Notes: generated from the sequence alone by a model not told the origin. Shown: positions 5,141 through 54,671, counted from the first letter of the stretch. The stretch is DNA of 64,000 nucleotides from Candidatus Woesearchaeota archaeon (GCA_016935095.1 JAFGRO010000003.1:5702-69701), one strand, 5' to 3'. Numbers and translations: made by a program.

Positions 5141-5142
5141 TC

Positions 5143-7346: not shown

Positions 7347-7379
7347 TGAGGTTAATAAAAGAAGGAATTATATAAAAAT

Positions 7380-9683: not shown

Positions 9684-9724
9684 AAAGTCCCCCCAACTAA
9701 TTCACCAAAAAAAAATAAAAAAAA

Positions 9725-14066: not shown

Positions 14067-14214
14067 TCTCTCCCCCTCAATTACCAATCAAAAAACATAA
14101 GCAACGGTGTGTAATTTCAGCTTATATTTAAATATATTCTTTAATTTTCTACTTAATAGTAATTTCACAAAGTAATTATTAATTAATAATTAAAAAATAA
14201 AAAAACAGTAAATA

Positions 14215-14236
14215 AAAAATCCAAAAGAAATTTATA
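14215..14236 (+). promoter_or_regulatory. BRE/TATA promoter of the geranylgeranyl reductase gene (leaderless)
   Basis: AAAAATCCAAAAGAAATTTATA; TATA centred about 25 nt before ATG 14259. Confidence 0.4.
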
Positions 14237-27192: not shown

Positions 27193-28590
27193 TCAGGGTG
27201 TATATTTCCATATCTCTATTCCTTCATAATCATATTCCTTGCTGAATTTATTACTGTTTTTTAATAAAAATAAAAGCCCTTCATCTTCCTTTTTCCAGGT
27301 ATTGGTTTTCATTTGAGAATTAATCCAGATATAAACAATATTATATTTTTTCAATAGGGATTCGGTTTTATCTAAATTTCTTGAATAAAAAATTTCATCT
27401 GAGTCTTTAATTCTAAGTTTTTCTTTTGAATGAAGAAAATATAGTTCGTCACTGATGATTGGTCTTTTGGCAATTGCCTGTATCAGATTCCCGTTTTGAT
27501 AATGTGAAAACACAGTATCCATCTCATTCGAATTTGAGTTAAGCCATTCTAAACTTAAAATTTCAGAGGGGTGCGGAGGAAAATGGATTACCCTGTTGAT
27601 GTATGAGCCTGCTGAAAAAAATAAACCACACAATATAAGTAGGATAGCATATTTTTTTAAAATTTGTAATTCCCATTTTAAATTGATTAATTTTGTAAAA
27701 GCAAAGCCGGCATAATATACTAAAATAAATTCCAAATAAATCACAAAACTCTTTAAATAAACTGAAAAAAAGACTAAGATAATTATGAGCAAATAAATAA
27801 TGAAATTCTTTTTTTTATTTTTCCAGGAAAGCAATAATCCTATTCCTGAAAGAAATAAGGAGAAAATTCCAAAACCCAGCATCGCTCCTAAATCAGTAAT
27901 AGTTTCTTTAAATAAATTTCCAGATATTAATGAAGATACAACTGATTTGCCCTGTAGATATATAAAAATGAGCCCTATACCCAGGAGTACTAATGTAAAC
28001 AAAAATTGCCTTTTTTCACTGAATTTCTGATAATATGCAATCAATACAATCAAAGGCAAAACAAAACTTTTTATGTCAATAATTGTAATCAAAGAAAAAA
28101 CCAGTAATGAAAAAACATAGTTTTCCCTTAATAAAAGATAAGAGCCAAGCAACATCAGGAAAACAATAAGAAAATATTCATTAAAAATTGTAAAAGTGTA
28201 TATAAAAACTGGTGAAAAAAGCAATATTAGGCTGGTGAAAAAGGACCTCTTTAATGAAAGATTAATTTTCCTTAATATCAAATAGTATAACATCATAGAC
28301 AACATGCCGAAAATAAATGGCAATATTTTCATGAAATAGACTGTATCTGTAAATAGTGACAATAAAATATCTACAAAACAAAAATCATAGTCTCTCCCTC
28401 CGAAGAACAGCTCATCTGTTTTATTTAAATATTCCCCTGATTTTATTTTTTGTGCTAAACGAAGATGATAGTAAGAATTATAACTAATCAGATAAGGATT
28501 ACCCTTGTATCTAAGAAGATGCGGGCTTATTAATACACTAAGCGTAAATACTAAAATAATCAGGATTATTTTTTTTTCATCAATTTTCAT
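27193..28590 (-). CDS. GT-C-like polytopic membrane protein (STT3/ArnT-like N-terminal region, no WWDYG)
   Basis: More than 10 TM helices; first loop SYNSYYHLRLAQKI resembles the STT3/AglB EL1 motif; soluble C-terminal domain. Confidence 0.5.
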   Translation of the reverse strand: MKIDEKKIILIILVFTLSVLISPHLLRYKGNPYLISYNSYYHLRLAQKIKSGEYLNKTDELFFGGRDYDFCFVDILLSLFTDTVYFMKILPFIFGMLSMMLYYLILRKINLSLKRSFFTSLILLFSPVFIYTFTIFNEYFLIVFLMLLGSYLLLRENYVFSLLVFSLITIIDIKSFVLPLIVLIAYYQKFSEKRQFLFTLVLLGIGLIFIYLQGKSVVSSLISGNLFKETITDLGAMLGFGIFSLFLSGIGLLLSWKNKKKNFIIYLLIIILVFFSVYLKSFVIYLEFILVYYAGFAFTKLINLKWELQILKKYAILLILCGLFFSAGSYINRVIHFPPHPSEILSLEWLNSNSNEMDTVFSHYQNGNLIQAIAKRPIISDELYFLHSKEKLRIKDSDEIFYSRNLDKTESLLKKYNIVYIWINSQMKTNTWKKEDEGLLFLLKNSNKFSKEYDYEGIEIWKYTP

Positions 28591-28592
28591 TT

Positions 28593-30086
28593 TTAATCAA
28601 GAGCACAGTTCAATCTGTATATTTTAGCAGATTTATTGTATTCCAGTGTAAAACAGTCATTATCAAAATAGGGCAGTTCCTGAACAAGATAATCTTCTTC
28701 AGCTTTCTCACTAAATAAAATATAATTAACATCATATTTAAGAAGCATCTGAAGAGCATTTATTTTATAATTAGTAGTGTACATAACAGAGGTATCATTA
28801 ATTCTTACATTTATATTTGGGATCAACAAAAAATTAGAATCAATAACGTTTTTTCTTTTACCAAAATAAGATAAAAGATGTCCTTCTCTTATTGTAGTCA
28901 GGATAACTGAGTTTTTATCAGTATTATTTTCAATCCATAAAAACGGCTCAATATCTTCGGAAGAGGGTGAATTTTCAATTGCCTCATAAGAATACAGTAT
29001 TCCTGGAAGAATTGAAGTTAAAGAAATTAGAATTAAAAATATTAAAATAAAAATATTCTGATATTTTGATATTTTGGTTTTTTTAATCAGCAGGTTGAAT
29101 TGTTTAATAAACAGCGCAGATAATATTGTAAGAGTTGTACTCAGGAAAACAAGTGCGTCAAGAATATTAATGAGTTTCAGCCAGGATAATAAAAAGATTG
29201 ACAAGCAAATTGAAATTAATAAATAACTTGTTTTGCTCTTTTTTTTAAACAGATAATTATATACAATAATCACCCCGAAAAGAAGTGGAACCAGGCCAAT
29301 TGAATAAATTGCTTCCCAAAGATTGATCTGTGTAAAATATCTATCAAACATAAACTGGGGGAGATTCTGCCATATCAATTTCAGACCATGCAACTGAAAA
29401 GCCTTTTTAAAAACAATAAAATTAGCCCACAAAAAGAAAAACAGACTAAACAGTATCAACTCCATTTCCTTTTTTGTATTTTTGATTTTTTCAAGATAAC
29501 AGAATAATAAATATATCAATAAACTAAATATTAACAAGAAACTCAAAGAGCTGCTTGCAATCAAAACAAACAATAGAATTAACAAATAACTTATACTGGT
29601 TGTTTCCTTCTCAAGGTTCATAAAAAAATAGATGAACAAGAAGGTACATGGCAAAACGATTGAATAAATATTGATACTATTTACAGTTTCAAATAATATT
29701 ATAGGGATAAAAGCAGACATTACGGCAGCCATCAAGGAACTATATTTATTCCTTGTAATCTGGAAACTTACCATATATATAACTATTATGCCTGTTGAGA
29801 TGAATAAATTCGGCAGGATTTTACCAACCAGAGCAGGCGGCAGAAATATTGTAAAAAAACTTAAAATATAATAATAAAGAGGCATGAATGATACTTCTCT
29901 GCCTCTATAACTTAGCTCATCTTCATAGAGGGGCATACCTGTTTTTTTAATATGTTCAATTTGCCGTAAAAAAAAATAGGAATTATCATCTGAAAAATAC
30001 TGTGTCTGAAAAGCAAAAAATAATCTTGTGAATAATGCAAATGAAAATATTAATACAAGTATTAATTCCGGCTTTTTAAGCTTCAT
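28593..30086 (-). CDS. GT-C-like polytopic membrane glycosyltransferase (ArnT/PMT-like)
   Basis: More than 10 TM helices; first loop FSDDNSYFFLRQIEHI; C-terminal soluble domain. Confidence 0.55.
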   Translation of the reverse strand: MKLKKPELILVLIFSFALFTRLFFAFQTQYFSDDNSYFFLRQIEHIKKTGMPLYEDELSYRGREVSFMPLYYYILSFFTIFLPPALVGKILPNLFISTGIIVIYMVSFQITRNKYSSLMAAVMSAFIPIILFETVNSINIYSIVLPCTFLFIYFFMNLEKETTSISYLLILLFVLIASSSLSFLLIFSLLIYLLFCYLEKIKNTKKEMELILFSLFFFLWANFIVFKKAFQLHGLKLIWQNLPQFMFDRYFTQINLWEAIYSIGLVPLLFGVIIVYNYLFKKKSKTSYLLISICLSIFLLSWLKLINILDALVFLSTTLTILSALFIKQFNLLIKKTKISKYQNIFILIFLILISLTSILPGILYSYEAIENSPSSEDIEPFLWIENNTDKNSVILTTIREGHLLSYFGKRKNVIDSNFLLIPNINVRINDTSVMYTTNYKINALQMLLKYDVNYILFSEKAEEDYLVQELPYFDNDCFTLEYNKSAKIYRLNCALD

Positions 30087-30184
30087 ACTTAATTAAAAAT
30101 TAATAAGACAATATAATTTTAACTGAAAAATACAGCAAATAAATGAAATTAATATAAACTAAAGAAAAATTCTTATATACAAAT

Positions 30185-30748
30185 ATGAAAAAAAGTATTA
30201 AAAAAAGGAAATATAAGAAATTATTTCAAGGCAAAGTATTTAAAAGGATAATTATCGGAACAATATTAGTTATTTTAGCTTCTTTTTTTATTAATATATG
30301 GGTTCTTGTGTTCATGATTATTGTAATTATTTTTAATGCGAAATTAGCGTTATTTCAGTTACAAAAAGGTTTGCCGAGTGATTTTGAGTTATCTACTTTT
30401 TCAACAATTGTTATGACACAGGCTTTTGGACTTAAAATAGGTATTTTTACAGCGGTGTTTACAAAAGTAATTGCTTCAATATACAGCGGATATGTAATCG
30501 CGGATCATTTTGTGATGATAGGCACATACATTCTGGCTGCTATTGTTGCCTCGTTTTTTAGAGGTGCAAATACATTTACATTAGGTTTGATAATTGTAGT
30601 CATGAATAACATTATTATGTTCATGGTTTCAAAAAATCTTCTCAGAATAGACCATACTGCTAACATTTCATATACTTTAACAAACTTCTCATTTAATTTA
30701 ATAGTTTTTTCTGTTTTTGGGAATATTATCCCTCCTTTACTTGTTTAA
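30185..30748 (+). CDS. membrane protein, unknown function
   Basis: 187 aa, Lys-rich N-terminus, 5-6 TM helices. Confidence 0.5.
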   Translation: MKKSIKKRKYKKLFQGKVFKRIIIGTILVILASFFINIWVLVFMIIVIIFNAKLALFQLQKGLPSDFELSTFSTIVMTQAFGLKIGIFTAVFTKVIASIYSGYVIADHFVMIGTYILAAIVASFFRGANTFTLGLIIVVMNNIIMFMVSKNLLRIDHTANISYTLTNFSFNLIVFSVFGNIIPPLLV

Positions 30749-30778
30749 AAAGTGGAATATAGTGCAGAAAGAAATATT

Positions 30779-31729
30779 TTATTTATTAGTAAGATACCAC
30801 TCAACAAATCTTTTCATGCCTTCTTCAATTTTAATTTCAGGCTTATAATTCAGAATCTTTTTTGCCTTAGATACATCCGCATATGTCAAAGGAACATCTC
30901 CCATTGGCATTGGCTTTTGGATTATTTTTGCCTTTTTATTTAATATTTTCTCAATCACAGAAATAAATTCAGTTAATTTTATTGGATTCGAATTCCCGAG
31001 ATTTATTATCTCGAATTTATTCTCTTTTTCCATTGCGCTCAATATTCCGTTGACAATATCCGCTATGTAAGTATAGTCTCTTTTTGAAGAGCCATCCCCG
31101 AACCTTTCAACAGGCTTGTTATTATCAATAAGGTCTACAAATTTATAAGGTGCCATATCCGGTCTTCCCCTGGGACCATATACTGTAAAAAACCGCAGAC
31201 AGGTTATATTCAGATTATACAAACTACTGTAAGTCCTGCACAAGAGCTCGCCTGCTTTTTTTGATGATGCATATGGACTTACCTGGCTGTCGGTCCTGTC
31301 CTCTTCAGAAAAAGGTATTTTTTTATTTTTCCCGTATACGCTTGAAGAAGAGCCAAATATGAAATTCCTGATTTTAAACTCATTGGCTAATTCCAGAAGA
31401 TTTAAAGTGCCATTTACATTAACCTCAAAGTATAATCTCGGATTCTCAAGAGATGCTCGAACACCCGCCCGTGCAGCAAGATGGATTATTTTATCAGGAG
31501 AATTTTTCTTAAAGATTTTTTTTAAATTATCATAGTCAAGAATATCTGCCCTGAATAGTTTAAAATTCCCGTTATTTAAAAAAGCCCTGATGTTTTTTTC
31601 TTTTATCTTCGGATTATAATAATCATTAAAATTATCAACAGCAAGCACAAAATAATTTTTTTCCAGTAATTTTTCACAAACATGACTGCCTATAAACCCG
31701 GCTGCCCCTGTCACTAGAATCTTTTCCAT
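30779..31729 (-). CDS. NAD-dependent sugar epimerase, UDP-glucuronate 4-epimerase-like
   Basis: Start moved to MEKILVTGAAGFIGSH (abuts upstream gene end 31732); DNFNDYYNPKIKEKN; YASSKK catalytic motif. Confidence 0.85.
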   Translation of the reverse strand: MEKILVTGAAGFIGSHVCEKLLEKNYFVLAVDNFNDYYNPKIKEKNIRAFLNNGNFKLFRADILDYDNLKKIFKKNSPDKIIHLAARAGVRASLENPRLYFEVNVNGTLNLLELANEFKIRNFIFGSSSSVYGKNKKIPFSEEDRTDSQVSPYASSKKAGELLCRTYSSLYNLNITCLRFFTVYGPRGRPDMAPYKFVDLIDNNKPVERFGDGSSKRDYTYIADIVNGILSAMEKENKFEIINLGNSNPIKLTEFISVIEKILNKKAKIIQKPMPMGDVPLTYADVSKAKKILNYKPEIKIEEGMKRFVEWYLTNK

Positions 31730-31731
31730 TT

Positions 31732-32073
31732 TCACCTTACAATAAAATATATGCCTGCAATTATTAATAAAATCCCTGTCCATTTAAAAATATTCAGTTT
31801 TTCTTTTAAAAATTTTTTAGATAATAAAGCAGTCCATATATAAGACAAAGAAGTCAAAGGGTATATAATTGTTAGTTCACCCATCTTAAGGGAAATAATA
31901 TAAAAGATTGTTGAAAAACAGTATAAAAACAAACCAAGTAATAAATTAAAATTTTTTATTAATTCTTTAATTGAAAATTTGACTTTGGCTGAACCTAGTT
32001 TCAAAAAAAGCGCGCCTGCTGAACCTATTAAAGTGGCAATAGACACTAATAAAATTGCAATAATATTGATCAT
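31732..32073 (-). CDS. half-size EamA/DMT membrane protein, ArnE/ArnF-like
   Basis: 113 aa, 4 TM; YPLTSLSYIWTALLS..KWTGILLIIAGIYF. Confidence 0.65.
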   Translation of the reverse strand: MINIIAILLVSIATLIGSAGALFLKLGSAKVKFSIKELIKNFNLLLGLFLYCFSTIFYIISLKMGELTIIYPLTSLSYIWTALLSKKFLKEKLNIFKWTGILLIIAGIYFIVR

Positions 32074-32426
32074 TTTTTACTACCCAACCCTATTGAGGAA
32101 ATCCCGCAAACAATCAAAAACATACCCTGGATTTTGTTCAAAGCAAAAGACTCATTTAAATAAAAAACTGAAATCAAAGTTACCCAGATAAAACTCATTG
32201 AAATCATCGGGTAAACAATTGAAAGCTCGCCTTTTTTCAGAGCAATAACCAGGATTAATGCTCCCACAAAATAAAAAATAAAAGCTGGATATAACCAGTA
32301 ATTGGTTATTAATCTCATTATATCAAACTCAAAATTCCGTGAGGATAATTTAAAAAATACCTGACCAAAAGAAGTAAAAAGAGTACATATTATCATTAAA
32401 ATGATGATTTTTTTATTTGAACTCAT
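32070..32426 (-). CDS. half-size EamA/DMT membrane protein, ArnE/ArnF-like
   Basis: 118 aa, 4 TM; YPMISMSFIWVTLIS..KIQGMFLIVCGI; 4-nt overlap with its paralogue. Confidence 0.65.
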   Translation of the reverse strand: MSSNKKIIILMIICTLFTSFGQVFFKLSSRNFEFDIMRLITNYWLYPAFIFYFVGALILVIALKKGELSIVYPMISMSFIWVTLISVFYLNESFALNKIQGMFLIVCGISSIGLGSKK

Positions 32427-32431
32427 TTCAT

Positions 32432-35296
32432 TTAAGGATTCCAGTTAACCTTCCACACAATTATTCTCTGGCCCTGAACATCTGTAATATCACTGAATTT
32501 TTCAAAATGTTTTAAACCAAAACCGTCTAAATAAAACAGCCTGGTAAACATGCTCCCTGTTAATTCAGGTGACATTAATATCATCTGATAAGTTCCTGTT
32601 TGATTGAGCAGTACAATGGATAAATCATTTGGCAGTTTGTCTTTTTCATATTCTTTAACTATAAATTCATCATCTTTAATATACCCGAATTTTGCCGGAT
32701 GCATAATCTGGTTGTCCTGTGTATCAATATATGCTTCATCTTCTTCAATATCAATACTCAGGGGGATGTATTGATTTCCTCCTGCAGGAAGATTGCAGAT
32801 AATTGTCTTATTATTCTTTTTTGAACAACCTGTAATGCCACCGTAACTTGGCCATGCGGCAATCCAGTCATTCACTGCCCTATCTGTTCTAAGCTGCATT
32901 AATTCATTTTCATACATTTTTCTTGCATCTTCCTCTGAATAATCAAACTCATTAACCAATGCCTGGATAAATTCATTTTTGGTTTTGCTCTGGTAATAAT
33001 AATAAATCTTTGCTCTTTCAAAACTCCATATGCCGAAATGCGCCCACACACCAGATTTACCTACCATATCCTCGCTTGTAATAAAATAATTCTCAGGCGG
33101 TTCGCAATGCGTTAATTCTAATATTTCAGCAGCTTTTTCCTCACCAGCATATTTTTCAAGCACTTTCTCAGCTTTAGTTTTATCCAGTAATATAATCTCA
33201 TTCAAGACATCAATGGTTTTTATCATGTCTCCTGTTTCTTCATTTAATACCTCAAAAGCACTGTTGCTGCCGCAGTCAAGCATCCTTAATATCCCTATAG
33301 CCATGTCTTCATCATCTGTTAATAAAGCCTTGCCTATCCAGTGAGCCATAGGTCTGTTTTGTGATGCACCATCAAATGTTACTCTCCTATCTGCTAAATA
33401 TTTAAACCAATGCCCAAAGTCCCACCAAGAATTAACTATTGCATCCTGGCTTGATTCCTGCTTAATTTTTGTTAATGTATCATACCAGCCATCATTGACA
33501 TGTGGCATATATTGCCTTGCAACTCTCTGCCCTGCTTTTATCGGGTTAACTAACAGGATCAAAAGGAGGGTTATTACAATTATTTTTGAAATTGTTTTAT
33601 TTATATAAAGCTGGTTTGATGCAAATTTAACCAAAAAATCATAAGCAAGGCCAATTGATATTGAAAATGCAATTGCAAAGGGCGGGACTAACAGCAAAAT
33701 AAAACGTATTCCTTTTGAAGCAGCATATATTGTAGCCAAAAACCAGGTTATAAGCAAAATAGCATATTTTATGTCAATCTTATACTTAAATATTATTGAC
33801 AGGTAGATTCCGACTAATATAGGGACAGACAGCAATAAAAGGAACAATAAAAGATTCATTCCCGTATTGTTAATAAAAAGAACAAACCATATCAAAGATC
33901 CTGATAAATAAATCAGGTTTATTATTTTTTGTTTTTTAAAATCAACTAAAGTGCTGATAATGCCCATAAGGGCAATAACAAAAAAGAATCTGCTTCCCAC
34001 ACCATCTATGGTCTCTCCAAGCGAAGCTGGATTGAGTTCTGCTACTGTCGTATAAACATTCGGCCACAGACTTGCGCCTCTTGCAGCTTCTTTTAACCTG
34101 GTAATTCTCATTGGTTTGTTCACTAAATCAAAAAGCTCATTTGATTTGCCGAAAAGAGCTAATGAAACACCGGAAAAAAACAGAAAAATAAACAAGATTA
34201 ATAGTATATTTTTCACTTCAGCTTCAAAAAAGGACAAAGGTTTTTTTCTAATAGATTTAAAATGAAAAACAAGATGATACATCAGATAGAAAACAAGACT
34301 TCCAATCAGGAAATAAAAGATGTACCACCAGCCGGTCCATGCAAAACTGTAAAATCCAATAAAAAATCCTGACAAAGCTGCATAAATGAGCTTATTTCTT
34401 CTTTTTTCAGATGTAATTGACCATATAAAAAAGAACAGGATTATCAATGGAAAAACAATATTAACAATATCATTGTCACTTCCCAAAGATCTGCTTAAAA
34501 CATTGGGGTGTGTAGCAATTATCATCGCTGCAAAAAATCCGCCGATATTACCTGCAAGTTTTTTCCCAACTAAAAAAGCAACAATAATTGCAATTGTTGA
34601 TATAAACAAAGGTGTTAAAAATGCTGCCTGCATATATGTCATCTTGGGCTCAAAAAGCTTTAAAAGTTTATAATCAATTGCCTCAATGTAGGGATAGAGA
34701 TTATGGTCGGCAAATGTGCCGAGAGGAGCTATCATGTAAGTGTCATAGTTTTTGCCCTGCCTTATCTCATCACCATAATGGCCTTTTTCAACGATATTAC
34801 GGGCATACCTCATGTAAAAATAAGAATCAATATCCCCCAGGTAGGTATAGCCGTTCTCATCTTTGAACTTGGATTTTAGAAACTCAGAATTTTGCTTGAC
34901 TGCCTGCTCTACAGCGTCTTTTTGCTGATTCAGGATAATATTAAACCTTTCATTGATAAGAGCATCTTTATTTTGCTGAGGCAGATTAGGATATTCCGAG
35001 TTAACCTGGTTGGCAATATCACTTCTTATATAGTTGTAGACAGATTGTGTTGCGAAATCGTCTGTGATCGGCAGATAATTGGGATATAACCTAAAATGAA
35101 TATTAAGAATAATCGGAATCAGAACAAGCAGAAAAACACTGTATTTCGCAAAAACACTTATCAGTTTTTTTGAATCAATTGTTATTTCTTCTTCAGTTTC
35201 CTTAGATTTGGTCTTTTTAGCTTGCTTGGAACCTTTAAAAAATTTCAAAATTTTACTGAAATCAATTGTCAATTCTTCTTCAGATTTCTTGGACAT
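32432..35296 (-). CDS. aglB: archaeal oligosaccharyltransferase AglB (STT3)
   Basis: 13-TM N-terminal half and catalytic motif WWDFGHW (WWDYG); large C-terminal globular domain. Confidence 0.9.
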   Translation of the reverse strand: MSKKSEEELTIDFSKILKFFKGSKQAKKTKSKETEEEITIDSKKLISVFAKYSVFLLVLIPIILNIHFRLYPNYLPITDDFATQSVYNYIRSDIANQVNSEYPNLPQQNKDALINERFNIILNQQKDAVEQAVKQNSEFLKSKFKDENGYTYLGDIDSYFYMRYARNIVEKGHYGDEIRQGKNYDTYMIAPLGTFADHNLYPYIEAIDYKLLKLFEPKMTYMQAAFLTPLFISTIAIIVAFLVGKKLAGNIGGFFAAMIIATHPNVLSRSLGSDNDIVNIVFPLIILFFFIWSITSEKRRNKLIYAALSGFFIGFYSFAWTGWWYIFYFLIGSLVFYLMYHLVFHFKSIRKKPLSFFEAEVKNILLILFIFLFFSGVSLALFGKSNELFDLVNKPMRITRLKEAARGASLWPNVYTTVAELNPASLGETIDGVGSRFFFVIALMGIISTLVDFKKQKIINLIYLSGSLIWFVLFINNTGMNLLLFLLLLSVPILVGIYLSIIFKYKIDIKYAILLITWFLATIYAASKGIRFILLLVPPFAIAFSISIGLAYDFLVKFASNQLYINKTISKIIVITLLLILLVNPIKAGQRVARQYMPHVNDGWYDTLTKIKQESSQDAIVNSWWDFGHWFKYLADRRVTFDGASQNRPMAHWIGKALLTDDEDMAIGILRMLDCGSNSAFEVLNEETGDMIKTIDVLNEIILLDKTKAEKVLEKYAGEEKAAEILELTHCEPPENYFITSEDMVGKSGVWAHFGIWSFERAKIYYYYQSKTKNEFIQALVNEFDYSEEDARKMYENELMQLRTDRAVNDWIAAWPSYGGITGCSKKNNKTIICNLPAGGNQYIPLSIDIEEDEAYIDTQDNQIMHPAKFGYIKDDEFIVKEYEKDKLPNDLSIVLLNQTGTYQMILMSPELTGSMFTRLFYLDGFGLKHFEKFSDITDVQGQRIIVWKVNWNP

Positions 35297-35381
35297 GAGC
35301 TTACCTTTTTCAATAAATGAGGTTTTAAAAACTAAGAAGGTATTTAAAATTTATGATATTGTTAAGTTAAGTGTCTAATTG

Positions 35382-35495
35382 AGTATTTTTTTGAAAAAAT
35401 AATAATAATGGCACAGACGGATTTTATTCTAAAATCCTATTCCGATTTTCTGCGAAAAACTCCATCTGGCCATTATTATTTTTTCCTAGAATACT
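35382..35495. repeat. about 114-bp imperfect palindrome with nested hairpins (MITE-like or structured RNA)
   Basis: GAAAAAATAATAATAATGGC (35393-35412) pairs with GCCATTATTATTTTTTCC (35469-35486); CAGACGGA/TCCATCTG; inner perfect GGATTTTA-TTC-TAAAATCC (35419-35437). Confidence 0.5.
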
Positions 35496-35586
35496 TATTT
35501 TGGTTATAGAAATTGTATACTCAAATGTTTATTTTAAAGATATATATTCAATTAAAAATATAAATCTAACATAAATTCTTCAGTTA

Positions 35587-36789
35587 ATGGATTATAAAAA
35601 AGAGTATTTTACTATTTTTACCATTATGGTTACAGAAGTTCTCGGTTTTTCTTTGATTTTGCCATTTCTTCCGTTTTATGCTCAGGATCTTGGGGCCTCT
35701 CCTTTTGTAGTAGGTCTTTTATTAACCTGTTTTTCTTTTTTTCAGTTCTTATCTGCTCCGATAATGGGCAGGTTAAGTGACCATTACGGCAGAAAGCCTT
35801 TGCTGTTTTTTTCCCAGCTCTCTACTTTTATAAGTTTCTTGGTCCTTGGCTTTTCCAATTCATTATGGATGATTTTTTTATCCAGGATCATTGATGGCCT
35901 GCTTGGAAGTAATTTTACAATAGCCCAGGCTTATTTAAGCGATATATCCTCAAAAAAAAACAGAAGCAAAGCATTTGGATTAAGCGGAGCTGCTTTCGGC
36001 ATTGGATTCTTGATTGGGCCTGCAACTGGCGGATTCTTATCACAGTATGGTTATGGTGTTCCTGCTTTTATTGCCGCAGGAATGTCGTTTATAACAATTT
36101 TAACAACAATATTCCTGCTTCCGGAAACAGTAAAAAGAAAAAAAGATGTGAAAATTAATTTAAAAATATTTCATTTTAATGATTTTAAAAAATATTTTTC
36201 AAATAAAAAAATCTCTCCAAAACTAGGTACCTTTTTCTCTTATATTCTGACTCATGTAATCTGGGTAAGTTTAAGTGCCTTATATGCTGAAAGGCAATTA
36301 GGATTTAATGCACAGGACATGGGCTTTTATTTAACTTACGTAGGTTTAATAAGTGTTATTCTAAGAGGGTTTTTATTAGGAAGATTGATTGATTTTTTTG
36401 GAGAAAAAAAGCTACAGTTTTTCGGCGCAGCTTCAATGATTCTTGGCTTATTAGCAGCATCAATTATCAAAGAGCCGTGGATGTTTCTTGTTGTAATGAC
36501 CTTTTTTGCATCAGGCTCAGGCCTCTTAAGACCTTTATTAATAGGGTCTGTCTCAAGGCTTGGTTCAGAAAAAGAACAGGGTGCTTTGATGGGAGTAACA
36601 AATTCCCTTGGGAGCTTAGCACAAATATTCGGGCCGATGATCGGCGGTGCTGTAATCAATTATTTATTTCCGGGCTGCCTTGGATTGGTGGCAGGGTTTG
36701 TTATGGTTATTGGATTAGTGATGATGGCAAGGGAAGAGAAAAGAAAGAACAATAAAAGAGTAAATAAAGAAAGTGTTCAATATTACTAA
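35587..36789 (+). CDS. MFS transporter (drug/H+ antiporter-like)
   Basis: 12 TM; motif A GRLSDHYGRKPLL. Confidence 0.85.
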   Translation: MDYKKEYFTIFTIMVTEVLGFSLILPFLPFYAQDLGASPFVVGLLLTCFSFFQFLSAPIMGRLSDHYGRKPLLFFSQLSTFISFLVLGFSNSLWMIFLSRIIDGLLGSNFTIAQAYLSDISSKKNRSKAFGLSGAAFGIGFLIGPATGGFLSQYGYGVPAFIAAGMSFITILTTIFLLPETVKRKKDVKINLKIFHFNDFKKYFSNKKISPKLGTFFSYILTHVIWVSLSALYAERQLGFNAQDMGFYLTYVGLISVILRGFLLGRLIDFFGEKKLQFFGAASMILGLLAASIIKEPWMFLVVMTFFASGSGLLRPLLIGSVSRLGSEKEQGALMGVTNSLGSLAQIFGPMIGGAVINYLFPGCLGLVAGFVMVIGLVMMAREEKRKNNKRVNKESVQYY

Positions 36790-36914
36790 CATATTTAAAT
36801 TTCAGAATAAGAATCAATTCTAATTGCAGCTTGTATATAAATCATATGTAAAAATGTCCAGTGAATAAGAGGACAATTTATCTCCTTAAAGCACTAGAAA
36901 GGAAGAGGAATTGC

Positions 36915-36941
36915 GCATAACAGATGCGCGCGATGTTATGC
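36915..36941. repeat. GC-rich mini-hairpin GCATAACA-N11-TGTTATGC
   Basis: 8-bp perfect stem; related module at 37468-37486. Confidence 0.6.
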
Positions 36942-36945
36942 TCAA

Positions 36946-36960
36946 TTTAGGAGACTTCTA
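36946..36960. repeat. left inverted repeat of cassette A (TTTAGGAGACTTCTA)
   Basis: 14/15 reverse-complement match to 37389-37403. Confidence 0.7.
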
Positions 36961-36986
36961 AAAATCCAAAAGAAATATATATTTAA
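36960..36986 (+). promoter_or_regulatory. BRE/TATA promoter of the 128-aa Cys-rich gene (leaderless)
   Basis: AAAAATCCAAAAGAAATATATATTTAA; TATA about 25 nt before ATG 37005; same 17-mer as 14215-14231. Confidence 0.4.
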
Positions 36987-37004
36987 TGTAATCTTTATTA
37001 CAAT

Positions 37005-37391
37005 ATGAAAAAGCTTGTTATTGTTCTAATTTGTATTATTTTATTATTTGGTACTTCTTTAGGTATTGTATATATTATTAAAAATAATCAAACCAAGAAT
37101 GAATGGAATGAAAGATTTAATAGATGCAAAGCATCAATTGATCATCAACGAGAGCACATTGAGGAATCTATTTCTTTTTATCATGAAGATGAAGATAAAG
37201 TTACATATTTACAAAATCAGTTAACTGAATTTAACGATTGTGTAAATAAAGGTGGTTGCTATACCTGTCAGCCTTGTAACTCTCGACCTAAATTAGTTTT
37301 TAGGAAATTTCTTTTGGATTTTTTTATAAAAGAAGGTAGCTGTACTGCTGACTGTGTTTATTTCTGTATGTATCATTCAGATTATTATTAG
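37005..37391 (+). CDS. small N-terminally anchored Cys-rich protein, unknown function
   Basis: Signal/anchor helix LVIVLICIILLFGTSLGIVYII; C-terminal CYTCQPC..CTADCVYFC. Confidence 0.55.
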   Translation: MKKLVIVLICIILLFGTSLGIVYIIKNNQTKNEWNERFNRCKASIDHQREHIEESISFYHEDEDKVTYLQNQLTEFNDCVNKGGCYTCQPCNSRPKLVFRKFLLDFFIKEGSCTADCVYFCMYHSDYY

Positions 37392-37403
37392 AAGTCCCCT
37401 AAA
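37389..37403. repeat. right inverted repeat of cassette A (TAGAAGTCCCCTAAA)
   Basis: Pairs with 36946-36960; begins on the TAG stop codon of the enclosed gene. Confidence 0.7.
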
Positions 37404-37492
37404 CTCTTCGGAATTTTTGGCTCCGTAAAAACGTCTTGCAGACTATTCCTGGTTTCTAATGAAAGAGCATAACAGCGCCATGTTATATCCAA

Positions 37493-37506
37493 TCAGAAAT
37501 CAACGC
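37493..37506. repeat. outer left inverted repeat of cassette B (TCAGAAATCAACGC)
   Basis: 14/14 reverse complement of 38314-38327. Confidence 0.75.
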
Positions 37507-37517
37507 TAATTAAAGGG

Positions 37518-37532
37518 GGGGCAAAAAGTTTA
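37518..37532. repeat. inner left inverted repeat of cassette B (GGGGCAAAAAGTTTA)
   Basis: 15/15 reverse complement of 38256-38270. Confidence 0.75.
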
Positions 37533-37570
37533 TTAATATGCTGTGGCTTTATCATTTAAAGGCGGAATAA

Positions 37571-37705
37571 ATGACAAAATATAAATGTACTATCTGCGAT
37601 TATATTTATGATGAAAGTAAGGAAAAGAACAAATGGAAAGACTTACCAGATAGCTGGGTTTGCCCGCTTTGTGGTGCACCCAAAACAGCATTTGAAAAAA
37701 TATAA
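37571..37705 (+). CDS. rubredoxin (shortened, 44 aa)
   Basis: Below the ORF-track size cutoff; MTKYKCTICDYIYDE...DLPDSWVCPLCGAPKTAFEKI has both CxxC knuckles and the rubredoxin core. Confidence 0.8.
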   Translation: MTKYKCTICDYIYDESKEKNKWKDLPDSWVCPLCGAPKTAFEKI

Positions 37706-37714
37706 AGGTGTACA

Positions 37715-38251
37715 ATGAAATCTATAGGTCCCCTAATGATTGAGCATAGATTAATTGAACGTATGGTTGCTTTACTCAAAAAAGCGCTTTCAAGATTAGA
37801 AAATAAGGAAAATTTTAATCCGCAATTCATATTTGATGCTGTTGATTTTTTTAGAACCTATGCTGATAGGACTCACCATGGAAAAGAAGAAGACATTCTT
37901 TTCGAAGAACTAAAAAATAAGAAAATCTCCAATGAGCATAAGAGGATTATGGATGAATTAATTCAAGAGCATATTCTAGCCAGAGAAAATGTTAAAGGTC
38001 TTTTGGAGGCAAATGAACAATATGTAAAAGGCGACTCTAAAGAAGTAGATAAGATTATGGGCTTTCTAAAAACATTGGTAAAATTGTATCCGCCCCATAT
38101 AAAAAAAGAAGATACACAATTTTTTCTTCCAATAATGGATTACTTCACCGAAGAAGAGCAGCAAAACATGCTTAAGAAATTTTTTGAATTTGACAGGCAG
38201 ATTATTCATGAAAAATATAAAGGAACAGTGGAAAAATATGAAAAGATGTGA
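37715..38251 (+). CDS. hemerythrin HHE cation-binding domain protein
   Basis: IEHRLIERM, THHGKEEDILFEEL, ELIQEH, HIKKED His/Glu ligand pattern. Confidence 0.85.
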   Translation: MKSIGPLMIEHRLIERMVALLKKALSRLENKENFNPQFIFDAVDFFRTYADRTHHGKEEDILFEELKNKKISNEHKRIMDELIQEHILARENVKGLLEANEQYVKGDSKEVDKIMGFLKTLVKLYPPHIKKEDTQFFLPIMDYFTEEEQQNMLKKFFEFDRQIIHEKYKGTVEKYEKM

Positions 38252-38255
38252 AAAT

Positions 38256-38270
38256 TAAACTTTTTGCCCC
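38256..38270. repeat. inner right inverted repeat of cassette B (TAAACTTTTTGCCCC)
   Basis: Perfect partner of 37518-37532; starts 5 nt past the hemerythrin stop. Confidence 0.75.
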
Positions 38271-38313
38271 TAATTTCTCTTATTTTATGTATCGCATTCG
38301 CTCATTATAAGGC

Positions 38314-38327
38314 GCGTTGATTTCTGA
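38314..38327. repeat. outer right inverted repeat of cassette B (GCGTTGATTTCTGA)
   Basis: Perfect partner of 37493-37506; its core TTGATTTCTG recurs directly at 38396-38405. Confidence 0.75.
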
Positions 38328-38408
38328 CTTTGCGGACGAAATTTGACCCCACTAGGTAGGGGGAAAGAATATAATAGGAACCATGTTATACGCAATTGAT
38401 TTCTGGCA

Positions 38409-38663
38409 CTACATCTTCTTATAAATATTCTTTCTATGTCCAATTCGCGTTACTTCAATTGTTTTAGAATTATAATTTATATCTGCAATCGCTCTATAGT
38501 CTCCAATCCTAAGCTTAAAATCCTTTCTTCCTGTTAATCTCTCCCAAAAATGATATGGGATGGGCTTTGTAGAACTTATTTTATCATAAATTCGTTTAGC
38601 TATTATTTTCTCTAATTTTTCAAGAAATTCAATAGCTTCTGGATCAAATATGACTTTATACAT
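38409..38663 (-). CDS. type II toxin, RelE/ParE superfamily
   Basis: 84 aa; KDFKLRIGDYRAIADI..TIEVTRIGHRKNIY typical RelE/ParE C-terminus. Confidence 0.85.
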   Translation of the reverse strand: MYKVIFDPEAIEFLEKLEKIIAKRIYDKISSTKPIPYHFWERLTGRKDFKLRIGDYRAIADINYNSKTIEVTRIGHRKNIYKKM

Positions 38664-38665
38664 AT

Positions 38666-38905
38666 CTAAAATCCTAACCTTTTTCTAGCTTCTTCTTCTG
38701 TGAGAAAGTTTCCGCTTTTAATCCTTTCTCTTGCTTTTTCAATAGCTTCTACAGTTTCTTGACTTAATTGTGGTTGAGATTTCGCTTTCTTAGCTATATA
38801 TATCAATTTCTTTAAGACTTCATCATAACTTTCGTTTTTATATTCTCTAAATTGATCTATTTGTATCTTTGTATCCTCATGGATTTTAATTGTAGTTGCA
38901 GACAT
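38666..38905 (-). CDS. cognate antitoxin
   Basis: 79 aa directly upstream of the toxin (2-nt gap); N-terminal beta-strand/helix DNA-binding-like region. Confidence 0.65.
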   Translation of the reverse strand: MSATTIKIHEDTKIQIDQFREYKNESYDEVLKKLIYIAKKAKSQPQLSQETVEAIEKARERIKSGNFLTEEEARKRLGF

Positions 38906-38917
38906 TTGTATTCACCC

Positions 38918-38943
38918 ATATACTAAGGTATACCTAAGTATAT
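38918..38943. promoter_or_regulatory. 26-bp palindromic operator between TATA box and SD of the toxin-antitoxin operon
   Basis: ATATACTAAGGTA|TACCTAAGTATAT, 12 of 13 pairs complementary; TTTAAATA TATA box abuts it on the minus strand. Confidence 0.5.
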
Positions 38944-39052
38944 TTAAATCTTTCTAAAATTATTATTTTAGAAGCCAGAAAAACTGTGTTTTTCGATGTT
39001 TTGTTTACGAACAAAAAATTAACTATCACAAAAAAAGAAATCTAAAAAACTC

Positions 39053-39796
39053 CTAGTCATTATCAACCCTAGGCGCAAGTATAAAGTTCATCATCAGCTT
39101 ATTCATCAGCTGGTAGCTTAGCTTCAATGGGTAGTCTTTGCTGAAATTTATATTAACATTAGGAGCCAGCTTGCTTCCCTGGATCATCTTTTTCAAATAC
39201 TCAATTGAGTATTTTGCCCTGACTATTTCTTCTGTCTCTGATTTAATCTCTGTTCTTTCATCCTGTTTAATCTCAACCTTTACCTGAGAAAGATCCCCTT
39301 CTGCAGAGATTATAAAATTATCTTTCTGTGCAATAAAGCTGACTGATTCCGCAACAATATCTGCGTCTTCAATAGCCTCGTTTAATATGTCAACATTTGT
39401 TGTGATTGTAACCGGAAAATTCAGTTCAGGGATTTTCTGCTCTTTCTCTTCAAGCTCAATTATCGGCAGGAAGAAGGTCCTGGTTGTGTTTGATTTTAGT
39501 GTTAGCTTGAACTTATTCTCATGCAATTCCATGGTTAATATGTCATTTGCGCCTGAACGCCTTAAGATCTGCTTAAGGTTATTTAAATTCAGGGCAATTT
39601 TCTGTTCTTTTTCAACACTATATTCTGTAAATGCGCTTCCAAGCAGTTTGAATATAACCATAGCAACATTTGCAGGGTCCATTGCAACTAAATCAATTGA
39701 ATCTTTTGTTATTTTAAATTGCGCCTCGCTGACTAAATCTGAGATTATTGACACAGAATCTTTAAATAATTTTGGATCAGCTAATGTCAGTTTCAT
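39053..39796 (-). CDS. pcn: DNA polymerase sliding clamp PCNA
   Basis: 247 aa; FKDSVSIISDLVSEAQFKITKDSIDLVAMDPANVAMV and two-domain clamp layout. Confidence 0.95.
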   Translation of the reverse strand: MKLTLADPKLFKDSVSIISDLVSEAQFKITKDSIDLVAMDPANVAMVIFKLLGSAFTEYSVEKEQKIALNLNNLKQILRRSGANDILTMELHENKFKLTLKSNTTRTFFLPIIELEEKEQKIPELNFPVTITTNVDILNEAIEDADIVAESVSFIAQKDNFIISAEGDLSQVKVEIKQDERTEIKSETEEIVRAKYSIEYLKKMIQGSKLAPNVNINFSKDYPLKLSYQLMNKLMMNFILAPRVDND

Positions 39797-39854
39797 AAAA
39801 ACACCCCCTCTATTAATTATAAGAGATAGGGAAATAATGTAGATATTTAAATAT

Positions 39855-41192
39855 TTACCTTATGTCTATTCTCTGCCCGTCCTGCATCAGATGTACTGTT
39901 TTTCCCAGCTCATAACCAAGCTCCTGTGCAAGATCTATCAGATTAGATGTCTTTGATATATCTCCGTGAGCAGGTATTATATGCTCAGGATTAACCATGT
40001 GTATTAAATCCCGGTGATCTTCCCTAGAAGCATGACCTGACATATGAATGTCCTTAAATATTCTTACTTTTAGTGCTTTTAACTTGTTTTCAAGTATGTC
40101 TCTATTTGCAATATTCAATGCATTTGGAATAGTAGTACATGAAAATATTACATGATCCTCAGGAAATAATCTGAATTTTAATCTTCCATCAACTATTTTT
40201 GAGAGAACAGCATTTGGCTCTCCCTGGTGGCCTGTCACAACTAAAAGATATTTATCCCTACCCTGTTTTTCTATTTTTCTAAGGATTTTTTTGACCTGTG
40301 AGCTGAAACCGCAGATTTCAACTGATTTTGAGAATTTAACAATACCGCAGGCTTCAGCAGCATAAGAGTATTTTGCAAGACTTCTGCCTAAAAAAACAAT
40401 CTTACGGTTCATCTTGGTGCCGAAATCAACTATTGACTTCAATCTTGCAATATGCGAGGCAAATGTCGTAACAATTACTGTCTTGTTTTTAGAAGGGACA
40501 CCAAGCATCACATCTCTTAACATCTCTCTTGCAATACTCTCAGAAGGCGTTTTTCTCGCCAGATGAGAGTAAAGAGAATCTAATATAAGCAATTTTACTT
40601 TCTTCTTTTTACCTAATTCTCTTAGTCTTTTAAAATTCGGCTTTTCGCCTATAACCGGAAAATTGTCAAATTTAAAATCATTGCAGTATAAGACAGAGCC
40701 TTCTGGAGTATGTACTGCAACCATAACTGTCTGAGGGGTTGAATGCGTTGTATTGATGAACTCAATTTTTATATCTTTATTCAACTGATAAACTGCATTT
40801 GTAGTCAAGGTCATTATTTTATTAGGCAGGTCAGCTTTACGGTCTTTTAAAATTGCTTTCAATACCTCAGATGAAAAAGGAGTGCATAAAATATCAGCAT
40901 CATAATTGGCTGCTATATAAGGTATTGCCCCAAGATGGTCAAGATGGGCATGCGTCGGTATAATTGCTTTAACGTATTTTTTCCAGTTTTTAATAAAATA
41001 TTCTTCAGGAATCGCACCTTGCCCCAATAATTCATTTGCATCTATGATATCATCTTCATTTTCATCTTTTGCACCTATGTACTTATCAACCTGCAGACCC
41101 ATATCAAGAACAACAACATCATCTTTGTATTTGACAGCGGTCATATTCTTGCCGACTTCAGAATAACCTCCTACAGTGCATATTTCTATCAT
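39855..41192 (-). CDS. rnj: archaeal RNase J (beta-CASP metallo-beta-lactamase)
   Basis: IPTHAHLDHLGAIPY (HxHxDH); beta-CASP motifs; C-terminal HMSGHASRED. Confidence 0.9.
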   Translation of the reverse strand: MIEICTVGGYSEVGKNMTAVKYKDDVVVLDMGLQVDKYIGAKDENEDDIIDANELLGQGAIPEEYFIKNWKKYVKAIIPTHAHLDHLGAIPYIAANYDADILCTPFSSEVLKAILKDRKADLPNKIMTLTTNAVYQLNKDIKIEFINTTHSTPQTVMVAVHTPEGSVLYCNDFKFDNFPVIGEKPNFKRLRELGKKKKVKLLILDSLYSHLARKTPSESIAREMLRDVMLGVPSKNKTVIVTTFASHIARLKSIVDFGTKMNRKIVFLGRSLAKYSYAAEACGIVKFSKSVEICGFSSQVKKILRKIEKQGRDKYLLVVTGHQGEPNAVLSKIVDGRLKFRLFPEDHVIFSCTTIPNALNIANRDILENKLKALKVRIFKDIHMSGHASREDHRDLIHMVNPEHIIPAHGDISKTSNLIDLAQELGYELGKTVHLMQDGQRIDIR

Positions 41193-46902: not shown

Positions 46903-47313
46903 TTATTGTATTATTTTACCATGAGGACATTTTCTTGGATTATTGAGCAAAATATCTATTTTCCTAATTGATTCCTCTGAGAAAGCATGTTCAAGTCGAT
47001 GTGCTTCTTTATTAAGTTTTTTTAAGTCTTTATATTTTAAAATCACCTGTAAAAAAACACTTATAACTCTAAAATTTTTTGTTAGTCTTTTTGCTTTTGT
47101 AAATCCTTTTTTTGTAAAAAAAATATTTGAATATGGAAAGTATTTAATGTATTTTTTTTCCCTTATTTTTTTTAACATCTCAGAAACACTTGCCTTGGAT
47201 ACATTTAATGATTGAGCAATATCAATTGACCTCACTCCTTTAAGTTTATTATCTTTTTCCTCATATAACATATATATAGTTCTTAAATAATCTTCAAAAG
47301 ATTTTTTTCTCAT
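46903..47313 (-). CDS. DtxR/MntR family metal-dependent repressor
   Basis: EDYLRTIYML, wHTH IAQSLNVSKASVSEMLKKI, dimerisation helix RLEHAFS. Confidence 0.85.
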   Translation of the reverse strand: MRKKSFEDYLRTIYMLYEEKDNKLKGVRSIDIAQSLNVSKASVSEMLKKIREKKYIKYFPYSNIFFTKKGFTKAKRLTKNFRVISVFLQVILKYKDLKKLNKEAHRLEHAFSEESIRKIDILLNNPRKCPHGKIIQ

Positions 47314-47316
47314 AAA

Positions 47317-47336
47317 AAGTTAGGTAAACCTAACTT
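47317..47336. promoter_or_regulatory. 9-2-9 palindromic operator (AAGTTAGGT-AA-ACCTAACTT) 4 nt upstream of the dtxR-like start
   Basis: Perfect 9-bp arms; contains TTAGGT/ACCTAA hexamers; TTTAAATA TATA box immediately upstream on the minus strand. Confidence 0.5.
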
Positions 47337-53813: not shown

Positions 53814-54671
53814 ATGAAAATAATACCTTTGGCATTTGACAGTCTTGGCACAAGATCAATGTGCACTTTTGTAGAAACAAAAGACGCCAAAATAATAATT
53901 GGCCCGAGCGTGGCTCTCGGCCCAAAAAGGTATAATCTGCCTCCTCATAAAAAAGAATTACAGAAATTAGAAAAGCATTGGAAAACAATAGTAAAATATG
54001 CAAAAATATCAGATATTTTAATAATCACTCATTATCATTATGACCACCATAATCCTGAGGAGTGTCTTGAGATGTACAAAAATAAAACAGTTTTGATCAA
54101 ACATCCTACTGAGAAGATAAACCTTAGCCAGAAAAAAAGAGCAAAGTATTTTCTGAACAAAATAAAAGGATTAGCAAAAAAAATAGAATATGCTGACAAA
54201 AACAAATTTAAATTTGGCAAAACAAAGATTGAATTTTCCCCTGCTGTAGAACACGGAACAAATTCAAAACTTGGTTATGTTACAGAAGTTTTAATAGATG
54301 ATGGTTATAAACTCATACACAGCTCAGATGTAGAAGGCCCTGCACTGGACAACCAGACAGATTTTATTTTAAAAAATAAGCCGAATCTATTAATATTAGA
54401 CGGGCCGCTTTCTTATATGCTGGGTTACAGGTATTCTTATGAAAGTCTGAATTCATCTATCAGAAACATGATTAAGATTATTAATAAGTGTCCATTAGAT
54501 TCCATAATAATAGACCACCATTTTCTTAGAGACCTGAAATGGAAAGAGCATCTATCAGAAGTTTTTAATGCTGCAGAGAAAAAAAAGATTAAACTACAAA
54601 CTGCTGCAGAATATGCCAGCAAAAAAATAAATACATTAGAAGCACATAGAAAGGAACTGTATAAAAAATGA
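53814..54671 (+). CDS. archaeal MBL-fold protein (UPF0282-like)
   Basis: IIPLAFDSLGTRSMCTFVETK..VALGPKRYNLPP..ITHYHYDHH. Confidence 0.65.
   Translation: MKIIPLAFDSLGTRSMCTFVETKDAKIIIGPSVALGPKRYNLPPHKKELQKLEKHWKTIVKYAKISDILIITHYHYDHHNPEECLEMYKNKTVLIKHPTEKINLSQKKRAKYFLNKIKGLAKKIEYADKNKFKFGKTKIEFSPAVEHGTNSKLGYVTEVLIDDGYKLIHSSDVEGPALDNQTDFILKNKPNLLILDGPLSYMLGYRYSYESLNSSIRNMIKIINKCPLDSIIIDHHFLRDLKWKEHLSEVFNAAEKKKIKLQTAAEYASKKINTLEAHRKELYKK

Follow-up and report, generated by a model that had tools for sequence, protein, structure and literature searches.

At DNA breaks in yeast, fold-back synthesis leaves templated inverted duplications of 5-34 bp, complex insertions join two inverted pieces of one locus by 2-11 nt of microhomology, and fold-back has also been described within extrachromosomal single-stranded DNA (ssDNA) prior to its capture (PMC11724301). 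In bacteria and yeast, template switching makes, perfects and expands inverted repeats (PMC5941160, in which spacers of at most 70 bp were used; PMC8604942; PMC13100816). Inverted repeats or hairpin-like sites also accompany mobile units such as the pdif (dif) modules of Acinetobacter (PMC13141974), MITEs (miniature transposable elements with inverted repeats) and the cassettes of integrons, the latter being reported in Nanoarchaeota, which belong to the DPANN archaea (PMC9668308). Here, we describe a locus in which two neighboring units, a gene for a Cys-rich 128-aa membrane-anchored protein and a rubredoxin-hemerythrin operon, are each bracketed by exact inverted repeats. It lies in a 64,000-nt stretch (32% G+C), called the window throughout, from Candidatus Woesearchaeota archaeon, a Woesearchaeota-type DPANN archaeon (GCA_016935095.1, JAFGRO010000003.1:5702-69701). 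We favor, with slightly less than even confidence, the reading that the repeats are scars of template-switch or fold-back repair left at the borders of two inserted or relocated units. The locus would thus most likely be a mutational footprint rather than a new element.

The inverted-repeat architecture is real, unusual and far beyond chance. The strings quoted by the initial annotation, a reading made from the window itself, were all retrieved in place with the exception of a shift by one position: the reverse complement of TTGCGYATAACA is indeed present, at 38384-38395 and not at 38385-38396. In the first unit, TTTAGGAGACTTCTA (36946-36960) and TAGAAGTCCCCTAAA (37389-37403) are complementary at 14 of 15 positions. 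An additional perfect 17-nt inverted repeat (36960-36976 and 37307-37323), missed by the initial annotation, abuts the first left arm, which thereby becomes a 31-nt arm D (36946-36976) whose partner is split by 65 nt. Directly downstream of arm D comes the TATA box predicted for the Cys-rich gene. The right partners of arm D are D'1 (37307-37323), which lies within the coding sequence and encodes KFLLDFF, and D'2 (37389-37403), which begins on the TAG stop codon. The second unit is enclosed by two nested perfect pairs. The outer pair consists of arm B (TCAGAAATCAACGC, 37493-37506) and its inverted copy B' (GCGTTGATTTCTGA, 38314-38327), complementary at 14/14 positions, and the inner pair of GGGGCAAAAAGTTTA (37518-37532) and TAAACTTTTTGCCCC (38256-38270), complementary at 15/15. 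This inner pair forms part of arm C (37508-37532; AATTA[AAGGG]GGGGCAAAAAGTTTA), which extends over the transcription factor B recognition element (BRE) predicted for the rubredoxin-hemerythrin operon and over the first half of its TATA box, and of the inverted copy of this arm, C' (38256-38275; TAAACTTTTTGCCCC followed by TAATT). Taken together, B to C and B' to C' are collinear inverted copies with 0 substitutions in 34 aligned nt, their only differences being a slip of 5 nt within a run of G and 38 nt of other sequence in between. All these arms are numbered on the plus strand.

Three hairpin-like modules, to which no strand is assigned, separate and flank the units: H1 (36909-36947; AATTGCGCATAACA - GATGCGCGCGA - TGTTATGCTCAATT), with a 14-bp stem containing one mismatch, H2 (37461-37493; GAAAGAGCATAACA - GCGCCA - TGTTATATCCAAT) and H3 (38362-38396; GGAAAGAATATAATA - GGAACCA - TGTTATACGCAAT). 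Both mini-hairpins of the initial annotation and the two copies of the block CATGTTATA-NN-CAAT were recovered; H3 had been overlooked and is a direct repeat of H2 with about 80% identity (p ~0.001). The right arm of H3 pairs at 13 of 14 positions with the left arm of H1, forming an outermost pair (36909-36922 and 38384-38397) which had likewise escaped notice. The first base of arm B is the last base of H2, and a third copy of the B core (TTGATTTCTG, 10 nt, 38396-38405, plus strand) lies 3 nt from the stop codon of the adjoining toxin gene. The same layout is thus seen twice: an H module, immediately followed (0 nt) by a left arm, the cargo, a right arm, then 56 or 34 nt and the next H module. 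Each arm is a perfect, discrete and sharply delimited block; the H modules, by contrast, are only 75-80% alike and have spacers of 11, 6 and 7 nt that are unlike in sequence. No arm of one unit is related to an arm of the other. Folded as ssDNA, the spacers between genes are no more stable than their shuffles, with the exception of the 39-nt hairpin of H1.

To evaluate chance, perfect inverted repeats of at least 28 bits were counted in 2000 dinucleotide shuffles of positions 36700-38500: five shuffles contained one such repeat and none contained two, against three observed within 1.4 kb. The initial annotation had judged the repeats non-random and asked for this very control, which bears it out. 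In the whole window, only nine perfect repeats of at least 14 nt have their partners within 2 kb; three of the nine are at this locus, and two of these three (6 G+C each) are the most G+C-rich of all nine. Moreover, in 1.23 Mb of comparison DNA, made up of the window and 80 related loci, repeats of at least 27 bits number 32, or about one per 40 kb, and three occur together at no other locus. Together with the shuffles, this background, drawn from 1.2 Mb of related DNA, rules out a chance origin of the local repeats.

The repeats belong to this locus and not to the genes, since loci carrying homologous cargo lack the bracket. Rubredoxin (37571-37705) and hemerythrin (37715-38251), both on the plus strand (37571-38251), form a widespread two-gene operon, whose closest copies (L083, L084 and L085, with hemerythrin identities of 75%, 74% and 66%) occur in three unrelated contexts. 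DNA identity between L083 and the window is 78% over exactly 37571-38242 and ends there. No flanking repeats of 9 nt or longer were found around the operon in L083 and L085, and in L084 only short A+T-rich matches (at most 11 nt). A locus with a full-length homologue of the Cys-rich gene (L117) is similarly devoid of bracketing repeats.

Regarding the direction of copying, the first unit is informative. Conserved coding sequence makes up both D'1 and the 65 nt that separate the right arms; these 65 nt encode a CT.DC.YFCMY..Y tail which, like the FLLDFF of D'1, is conserved in distant homologues. Hence the coding DNA is older and the 31-nt left arm is a derived, composite inverted copy: in it, the stop-codon region (14/15) and a coding piece located 65 nt upstream (17/17), both as reverse complements, are fused and overlap by 1 nt. 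In the second unit, a patch on the plus strand, P1 (38241-38258), is an exact 18-nt direct copy of positions 36141-36158, inside the major facilitator superfamily (MFS) transporter gene on the same strand. The MFS gene was the donor, since the KKDVKIN loop encoded there is conserved in MFS relatives. P1 begins exactly where homology to L083, L084 and L085 ends, and it replaces the ancestral hemerythrin stop, the C-terminus reading ..YE-stop or ..YS-stop in relatives and ..YEKM-stop here. It overlaps arm C' by 3 nt (TAA), and by our own estimate a P1-like match abutting C' would occur by chance in these spacers with a probability of ~1e-3. The copies are exact, the donors of P1 and D'1 are older and constrained, and the patches abut with overlaps of 1-3 nt (P1/C' and the two parts of D; other candidate overlaps involve patches at chance level). 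In relatives the flanks of the hemerythrin gene are unrelated, and the nearest relatives, with only 71-83% protein identity, have no orthologous spacer.

In the reading favored here, the inverted repeats, and some of the direct ones, would be by-products of template-switching DNA synthesis, an event of one class with fold-back or templated insertion of the MMBIR type (break-induced replication mediated by microhomology) and with quasi-palindrome template switching. As its occasion we propose the arrival, by insertion or relocation, of both units, the Cys-rich gene and the rubredoxin-hemerythrin operon, in the interval that separates the MFS gene from the toxin-antitoxin/PCNA block. At each junction, a 3' end would prime on a few bases of microhomology, copy a block of 14-20 nt from nearby DNA, jump and copy again, its donors being the opposite end of the unit itself, giving an inverted copy, or the neighboring MFS coding sequence, giving a direct one. 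The outer edges of the repeats would then mark the points where copying ran off or switched away, and the repeats would be recent scars rather than recognition sites of a protein. We favor template-switching synthesis because of the sharp and perfect blocks, the local copying in both orientations, the chaining through short overlaps and the placement at the borders of units that are found elsewhere in relatives; what we infer is the enzymology behind it, when it took place and that it was tied to the insertion.

The likeness to templated inverted insertions, fold-back and MMBIR events (PMC11724301; PMC8421209) lies in short exact copies of nearby DNA, often inverted, in chained patches with a few nt of microhomology, and in the joining of two pieces of one locus in inverted orientation, which is possible there, as is fold-back on an extrachromosomal fragment. 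Unlike these events, donor and copy are here 330-810 nt apart, whole genes are bracketed, the host is a DPANN archaeon and the case is known from its sequence alone. Quasi-palindrome template switching (PMC5941160; PMC8604942; PMC13100816) would explain perfect arms without selection, as well as the overwriting of promoter-adjacent repeats and synonymous codon choices, but the spacers of the documented cases measure tens of nt, compared with several hundred here.

Several observations weigh against a repair origin. The distance between donor and copy is unusually long, documented fold-back and quasi-palindrome events spanning mostly tens of nt. In both units the left arm follows the CAAT of an H module with 0 nt in between, which hints at a systematic, site-directed process, and the three direct H modules are not accounted for by copying scars. 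P1 taken alone, like the single distant matches in general, is only borderline when set against the all-versus-all background of the window, where 33 exact repeats reach at least 28 bits and 12 at least 31 bits. In addition, 10-12-mers cover the spacers to no greater extent overall than they cover control spacers. Since there is no close relative (71% identity for the best MFS, 83% for the best PCNA), the state before the event is not visible. Moreover, we know of no template-switch repair pathway characterised in DPANN archaea. The idea that whole spacers are patchworks was rejected on the 10-12-mer coverage, and two further distant matches (38270/52291 and 38309/49418) are at chance level.

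If the repeats are indeed repair scars, the locus preserves the way in which a reduced archaeal genome took in foreign or relocated genes, which would have been stitched in by microhomology-primed copying and not by a dedicated integrase. Repair could then, in one step, flank a gene with perfect inverted repeats, and such repeats would be raw material for later invertible segments or mobile units bounded by terminal inverted repeats (TIRs). This bears on the origin of TIRs as well as on the acquisition of oxygen-defence genes by DPANN archaea. As a single locus in an organism without a close sequenced relative, its present value is that of a lead.

Among the other explanations, the one that survives best, which we nonetheless consider unlikely, is that of small promoter-bearing integrative cassettes, inserted in tandem at a hairpin attachment site (H) by a site-specific recombinase or transposase encoded in trans. 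The direct copies of H would represent attL, a hybrid site and attR, and the inverted repeats would be cassette ends which, in the excised circle, rebuild a long stem with H at its tip. The geometry speaks for it: besides the layout seen twice, the left arm of H1 and the right arm of H3 form the best palindrome (12/13 for 13-nt arms, 13/14 for the 14-nt pair), as expected of an ancestral palindromic site split by insertions, and the arms facing the first cassette match at 13/14. The H arms are dif-like (ATTGNNNATAA) and resemble Xer half-sites, TTATATCCAAT being the exact reverse complement of the Pyrococcus abyssi dif arm ATTGGATATAA. Both cargoes are found in other contexts elsewhere, a toxin-antitoxin pair adjoins, and perfect arms beside diverged H sites would fit selection for mobility. 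Perfect arms also mean that an inversion would leave the promoter-gene junctions unchanged.

This cassette reading nevertheless failed every membership test that could be run. The initial annotation had proposed that the repeats may be boundaries of recombination or transposition and that further copies of the modules be sought. With up to 2-6 mismatches allowed, no other copy was found in the window, the only 64 kb of this genome open to the search, or in 1.15 Mb of related loci, and scans of the viral_contigs and metagenome_contigs collections with degenerate hairpin-site palindromes returned only chance hits or generic palindromes; the matches of an H2/H3 consensus among viral contigs were chance ones in AT-rich viruses. 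The pattern ATTGNRYATAACA-N5-12-TGTTATRYNCAAT had eight metagenome matches. Context was read for one of them (L103, identical to L101), which is on a non-archaeal, Bacteroidota-like contig; the other six, seen as site sequences only, are mostly perfect palindromes on contigs of 27-42% G+C. Moreover, no integrase, transposase or invertase was detected in 40 scanned open reading frames (ORFs), which are nearly all of those of at least 115 aa in the window, Phage_integrase included, in agreement with the initial annotation, which had reported no recombinase in the window. Nor is the pairing of the arms diagnostic: in the six-arm matrix three pairings score 32-33, and nested pairing was discarded as proof of sequential integration as the matrix does not separate it from plain direct duplication. 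Homology between the linkers that follow the right arms is not significant (p = 0.29), and the arms of the two cassettes are mutually unrelated. An imported terminal repeat does not fit either, because one of the right arms consists of conserved cargo coding sequence, and the right flank is partly copied from the resident MFS gene, so that it was built in place. Boundaries of an element family are thus not supported, nor does anything point to a conserved function. Two of the outcomes that the initial annotation had named as refuting its proposal, the lack of further copies and the lack of the repeats in relatives with the same genes, were observed within the DNA covered.

Comparison with described mobile units leads to a similar picture. 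Acinetobacter pdif modules are small accessory modules, toxin-antitoxin and peroxide-resistance genes among them, bracketed by inversely oriented half-palindromic sites common to neighbors, and their 11-6-11 XerC/XerD sites occur in many copies with demonstrated inversions and deletions (PMC13141974). Here, unlike pdif, the half-sites are 10-15 nt apart rather than 6 (15, 10 and 11 nt between ATAA and TTAT in H1, H2 and H3), the H spacers differ in length and sequence, only three local copies exist, without evidence of Xer, and there are additional unrelated inverted repeats. A woesearchaeal dif site was rejected, since the palindrome scans gave chance or generic matches and no dif-like 11-N(5-8)-11 site with an ATAA/TTAT-flanked spacer was found in the related loci. 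Integron cassette arrays and clusters of attC sites lacking integrons (CALINs), including archaeal ones (PMC9668308), share with the locus tandem small cassettes in one orientation, a hairpin-like site in between and a toxin-antitoxin pair nearby. They differ in their RYYYAAC...GTTRRRY attC cores, in hairpins of 57-141 nt compared with 19-39 nt here, and in that the present cassettes have their own promoters and are flanked, rather than followed, by the palindrome halves. An integron attC was dismissed since no core pair RYYYAAC-N35-130-GTTRRRY occurs on either strand of 36790-39052. Finally, inverted repeats at both ends of a short unit (14/15 plus 17/17 for the first, 14/14 plus 15/15 for the second) recall MITE-like or cargo-carrying TIR transposons. 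Unlike these, however, the units are single-copy, their arms are unrelated between units, one arm is conserved cargo coding sequence, and no target-site duplication is present by the arm pairs, the flanks reading GCTCAAT ... CTCTTCG and TATCCAA ... CTTTGCG.

A more specific version, to which we assign a low probability, would make these units the first examples of an undescribed DPANN cassette class, inserting beside a dif-like hairpin site by means of a trans-encoded, possibly Xer-related recombinase, with sequence-variable inverted ends that rebuild a long stem bearing the conserved crossover site at its tip. Such a class could be regarded as integron attC sites, or the dif modules of Acinetobacter, turned "inside-out" by analogy and would be, if confirmed, a new cassette system in a phylum with few known integrons.

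Equally improbable in our view is a cis-regulatory role, in which the left arms would be promoter elements (BRE and upstream sequence), their inverted copies, placed where the genes end, would serve both as promoters of antisense transcripts and as T-rich terminators of the sense strand, and two units of oxidative-stress type would have H1 and H2 as common operators, ~31-35 nt upstream of their TATA boxes. The position of arm C over the predicted BRE/TATA supports it, and an A-rich BRE/TATA turns, as its reverse complement, into a T5 tract, which is the usual terminator signal of archaea. H1 and H2 also lie at similar distances from their respective TATA boxes, and the inner 17-mer of arm D recurs exactly before another TATA box of the window. 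Indeed, an exact 20-nt reverse complement of coding positions 37305-37324 is found at 14214-14233 (plus strand), just upstream of the TATA box of an FAD-oxidoreductase gene that starts at 14259, 23 kb from the Cys-rich gene. The common 17-mer AAAAATCCAAAAGAAAT thus directly precedes TATA boxes at 14215 and 36960, and the Leu codons of the Cys-rich coding match (CTT, TTG) are the minor ones required for it. We estimate the chance of a third exact copy of this 17-mer in the window at ~2e-4; counted as one of all window pairs, the 34-bit match has p ~0.2. This 20-nt match and the origin of the H modules are left unexplained by template-switch repair. The regulatory reading, for its part, would require a loose consensus only and not exact identity over 14-17 nt, the half-site spacing differs by 5 nt between H1 and H2, H3 is not placed ahead of any gene, and such repeats are missing from the operon homologues (L083 and L085) and from the homologue of the Cys-rich gene (L117). 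A DtxR-type operator (TTAGG..CTAA), considered for arm D, is at chance level, with three matches in the window and ~3 expected from our own composition-based estimate.

Still less probable is that each unit underwent palindromic (inverted) duplication and was then stabilised by large asymmetric central deletions, only the distal ends being left. Long palindromes are unstable and are resolved by central deletions, the arms are in mirror order and, of the hypothetical inverted copy, it is in every case the distal end that has been retained. However, several precise deletions per unit would be needed, with one endpoint exactly at the symmetry axis, and neither the MFS-derived patch nor the H modules are explained; this is in fact a variant of the repair-scar idea, from which it is not clearly separable.

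As for long-range RNA stems pairing the 5' and 3' ends of each transcript, the alternative offered by the initial annotation, they are very improbable because the left arms lie on or upstream of what appear to be the promoters and no RNA-specific signal is seen: if co-transcribed, the arms would dominate the fold (z-score of -3.35 for unit 1, with the stems in both minimum-free-energy and centroid structures) and transcription from a TATA-like ATATAAATC at 36835 could include arm D in a long leader, but the left arms overlap or precede the best BRE/TATA candidates, the Cys-rich gene appears to be leaderless, the 46 bp of stem contain no G-U pair and A-C as their sole mismatch, no Rfam match or bulge-helix-bulge geometry is found, unit 2 has a z-score of only -1.43 and the stems are not conserved in homologous loci. 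Action or origin of the repeats at the DNA level, rather than at the RNA level, is supported.

Returning to the cargo, the Cys-rich gene (37005-37391, plus strand) belongs to a small but real family. A word-index search found no homologue of its product, and a full phmmer search uncovered the family, whose members share a conserved C-terminal Cys-rich domain that comprises FLLDFF and the CMY..Y tail; codon statistics favor the annotated frame. In one 850-aa protein (P0244), 10 separate stretches match residues 32-75 of the Cys-rich protein, whose N-terminal helical segment may therefore be a repeat unit elsewhere. Regarding the operon, the homologous locus L084 (986-1374; ENA ERZ4903072, k141_2433190; 74% hemerythrin identity) has a 363-nt non-coding insertion splitting rubredoxin from hemerythrin, with a 13-nt flanking direct duplication (AAATAAAATGAAA), two 34-nt direct repeats and a central perfect 13-bp hairpin. 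This insertion looks MITE-like, with a target duplication.

The surrounding genes are, in order, STT3 (minus), MFS (plus), the Cys-rich gene (plus), rubredoxin and hemerythrin (plus), a ParE/RelE-family toxin with a DUF7557 antitoxin (minus), PCNA (minus) and RNase J (minus), and the gene calls of the initial annotation for rubredoxin, hemerythrin, toxin, antitoxin, PCNA and MFS all hold. Its proposal of an accessory islet was also upheld, the islet being lineage-specific: RNase J and PCNA remain syntenic in most of the 80 related loci, and in none of the 80 do MFS, hemerythrin, rubredoxin or the toxin-antitoxin genes stand next to PCNA in this arrangement. In one relative whose PCNA is 72% identical (L007; positions 1-10738 set against 27193-41192 of the window), the STT3-epimerase block, MFS and RNase J-PCNA neighbor one another in a different arrangement, which places the islet at a synteny breakpoint. 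The MFS transporter has at most 71% identity to any of 5.8 billion proteins, and PCNA at most 83% to any species representative. The closest MFS relative (71%, Zod_Metabat.297) is followed by ribosomal genes and so offers no empty site. The only other record of the locus is a single Logan contig from SRR13394437, 100% identical over 16 kb, which amounts to one assembly context; this independent contig, although probably from the same sample, led us to reject an assembly artefact. Exact-protein look-ups of MFS, toxin and rubredoxin gave no match, and those with proteins from the ends of the window extended the sequence by only ~1 kb. No tRNA gene was found in the window, no known RNA family of Rfam was matched, and a replication terminus was rejected since GC skew merely tracks gene orientation.

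The toxin (38409-38663) and antitoxin (38666-38905) genes together span 38409-38905 on the minus strand, and on its PCNA side the pair is without the shared modules. A near-perfect palindrome, ATATACTAAGGTAT/ATACCTAAGTATAT (38918-38943), overlaps the antitoxin promoter and is probably the autoregulatory operator of the pair. Likewise, a perfect palindrome, TTAGGTAAACCTAA (47320-47333), lies between the TATA box and the start of a DtxR-family repressor gene (46903-47313) adjoining feoB and is likely its self-operator; its likeness to the TTAGG..CTAA of arm D is at chance level. The SRR13394437 run also contains a contig (L116) whose MFS gene product is identical to the one from a second Woesearchaeota metagenome-assembled genome (GCA_016928835.1, Zod_Metabat.297; L115/L006), in which the MFS gene, whose product is 71% identical to that of the window, is followed by genes for ribosomal proteins L1/L10/L12, suggesting that both lineages co-occur in one sample. 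Elsewhere in the window, a 24-nt exact match (54852-54875 and 58118-58141) between paralogous CbiA/ParA-4Fe-4S genes (54668-55510 and 57919-58800) suggests recent duplication or gene conversion. In addition, an ORF of 575 aa without Pfam match (61937-63664) contains exact direct repeats of 19-20 nt with a period of ~190 nt at 62929-63328, which suggests an internally repetitive protein. Finally, this DPANN genome carries a gene for a bacterial-type DNA gyrase A subunit at 15408-17861.

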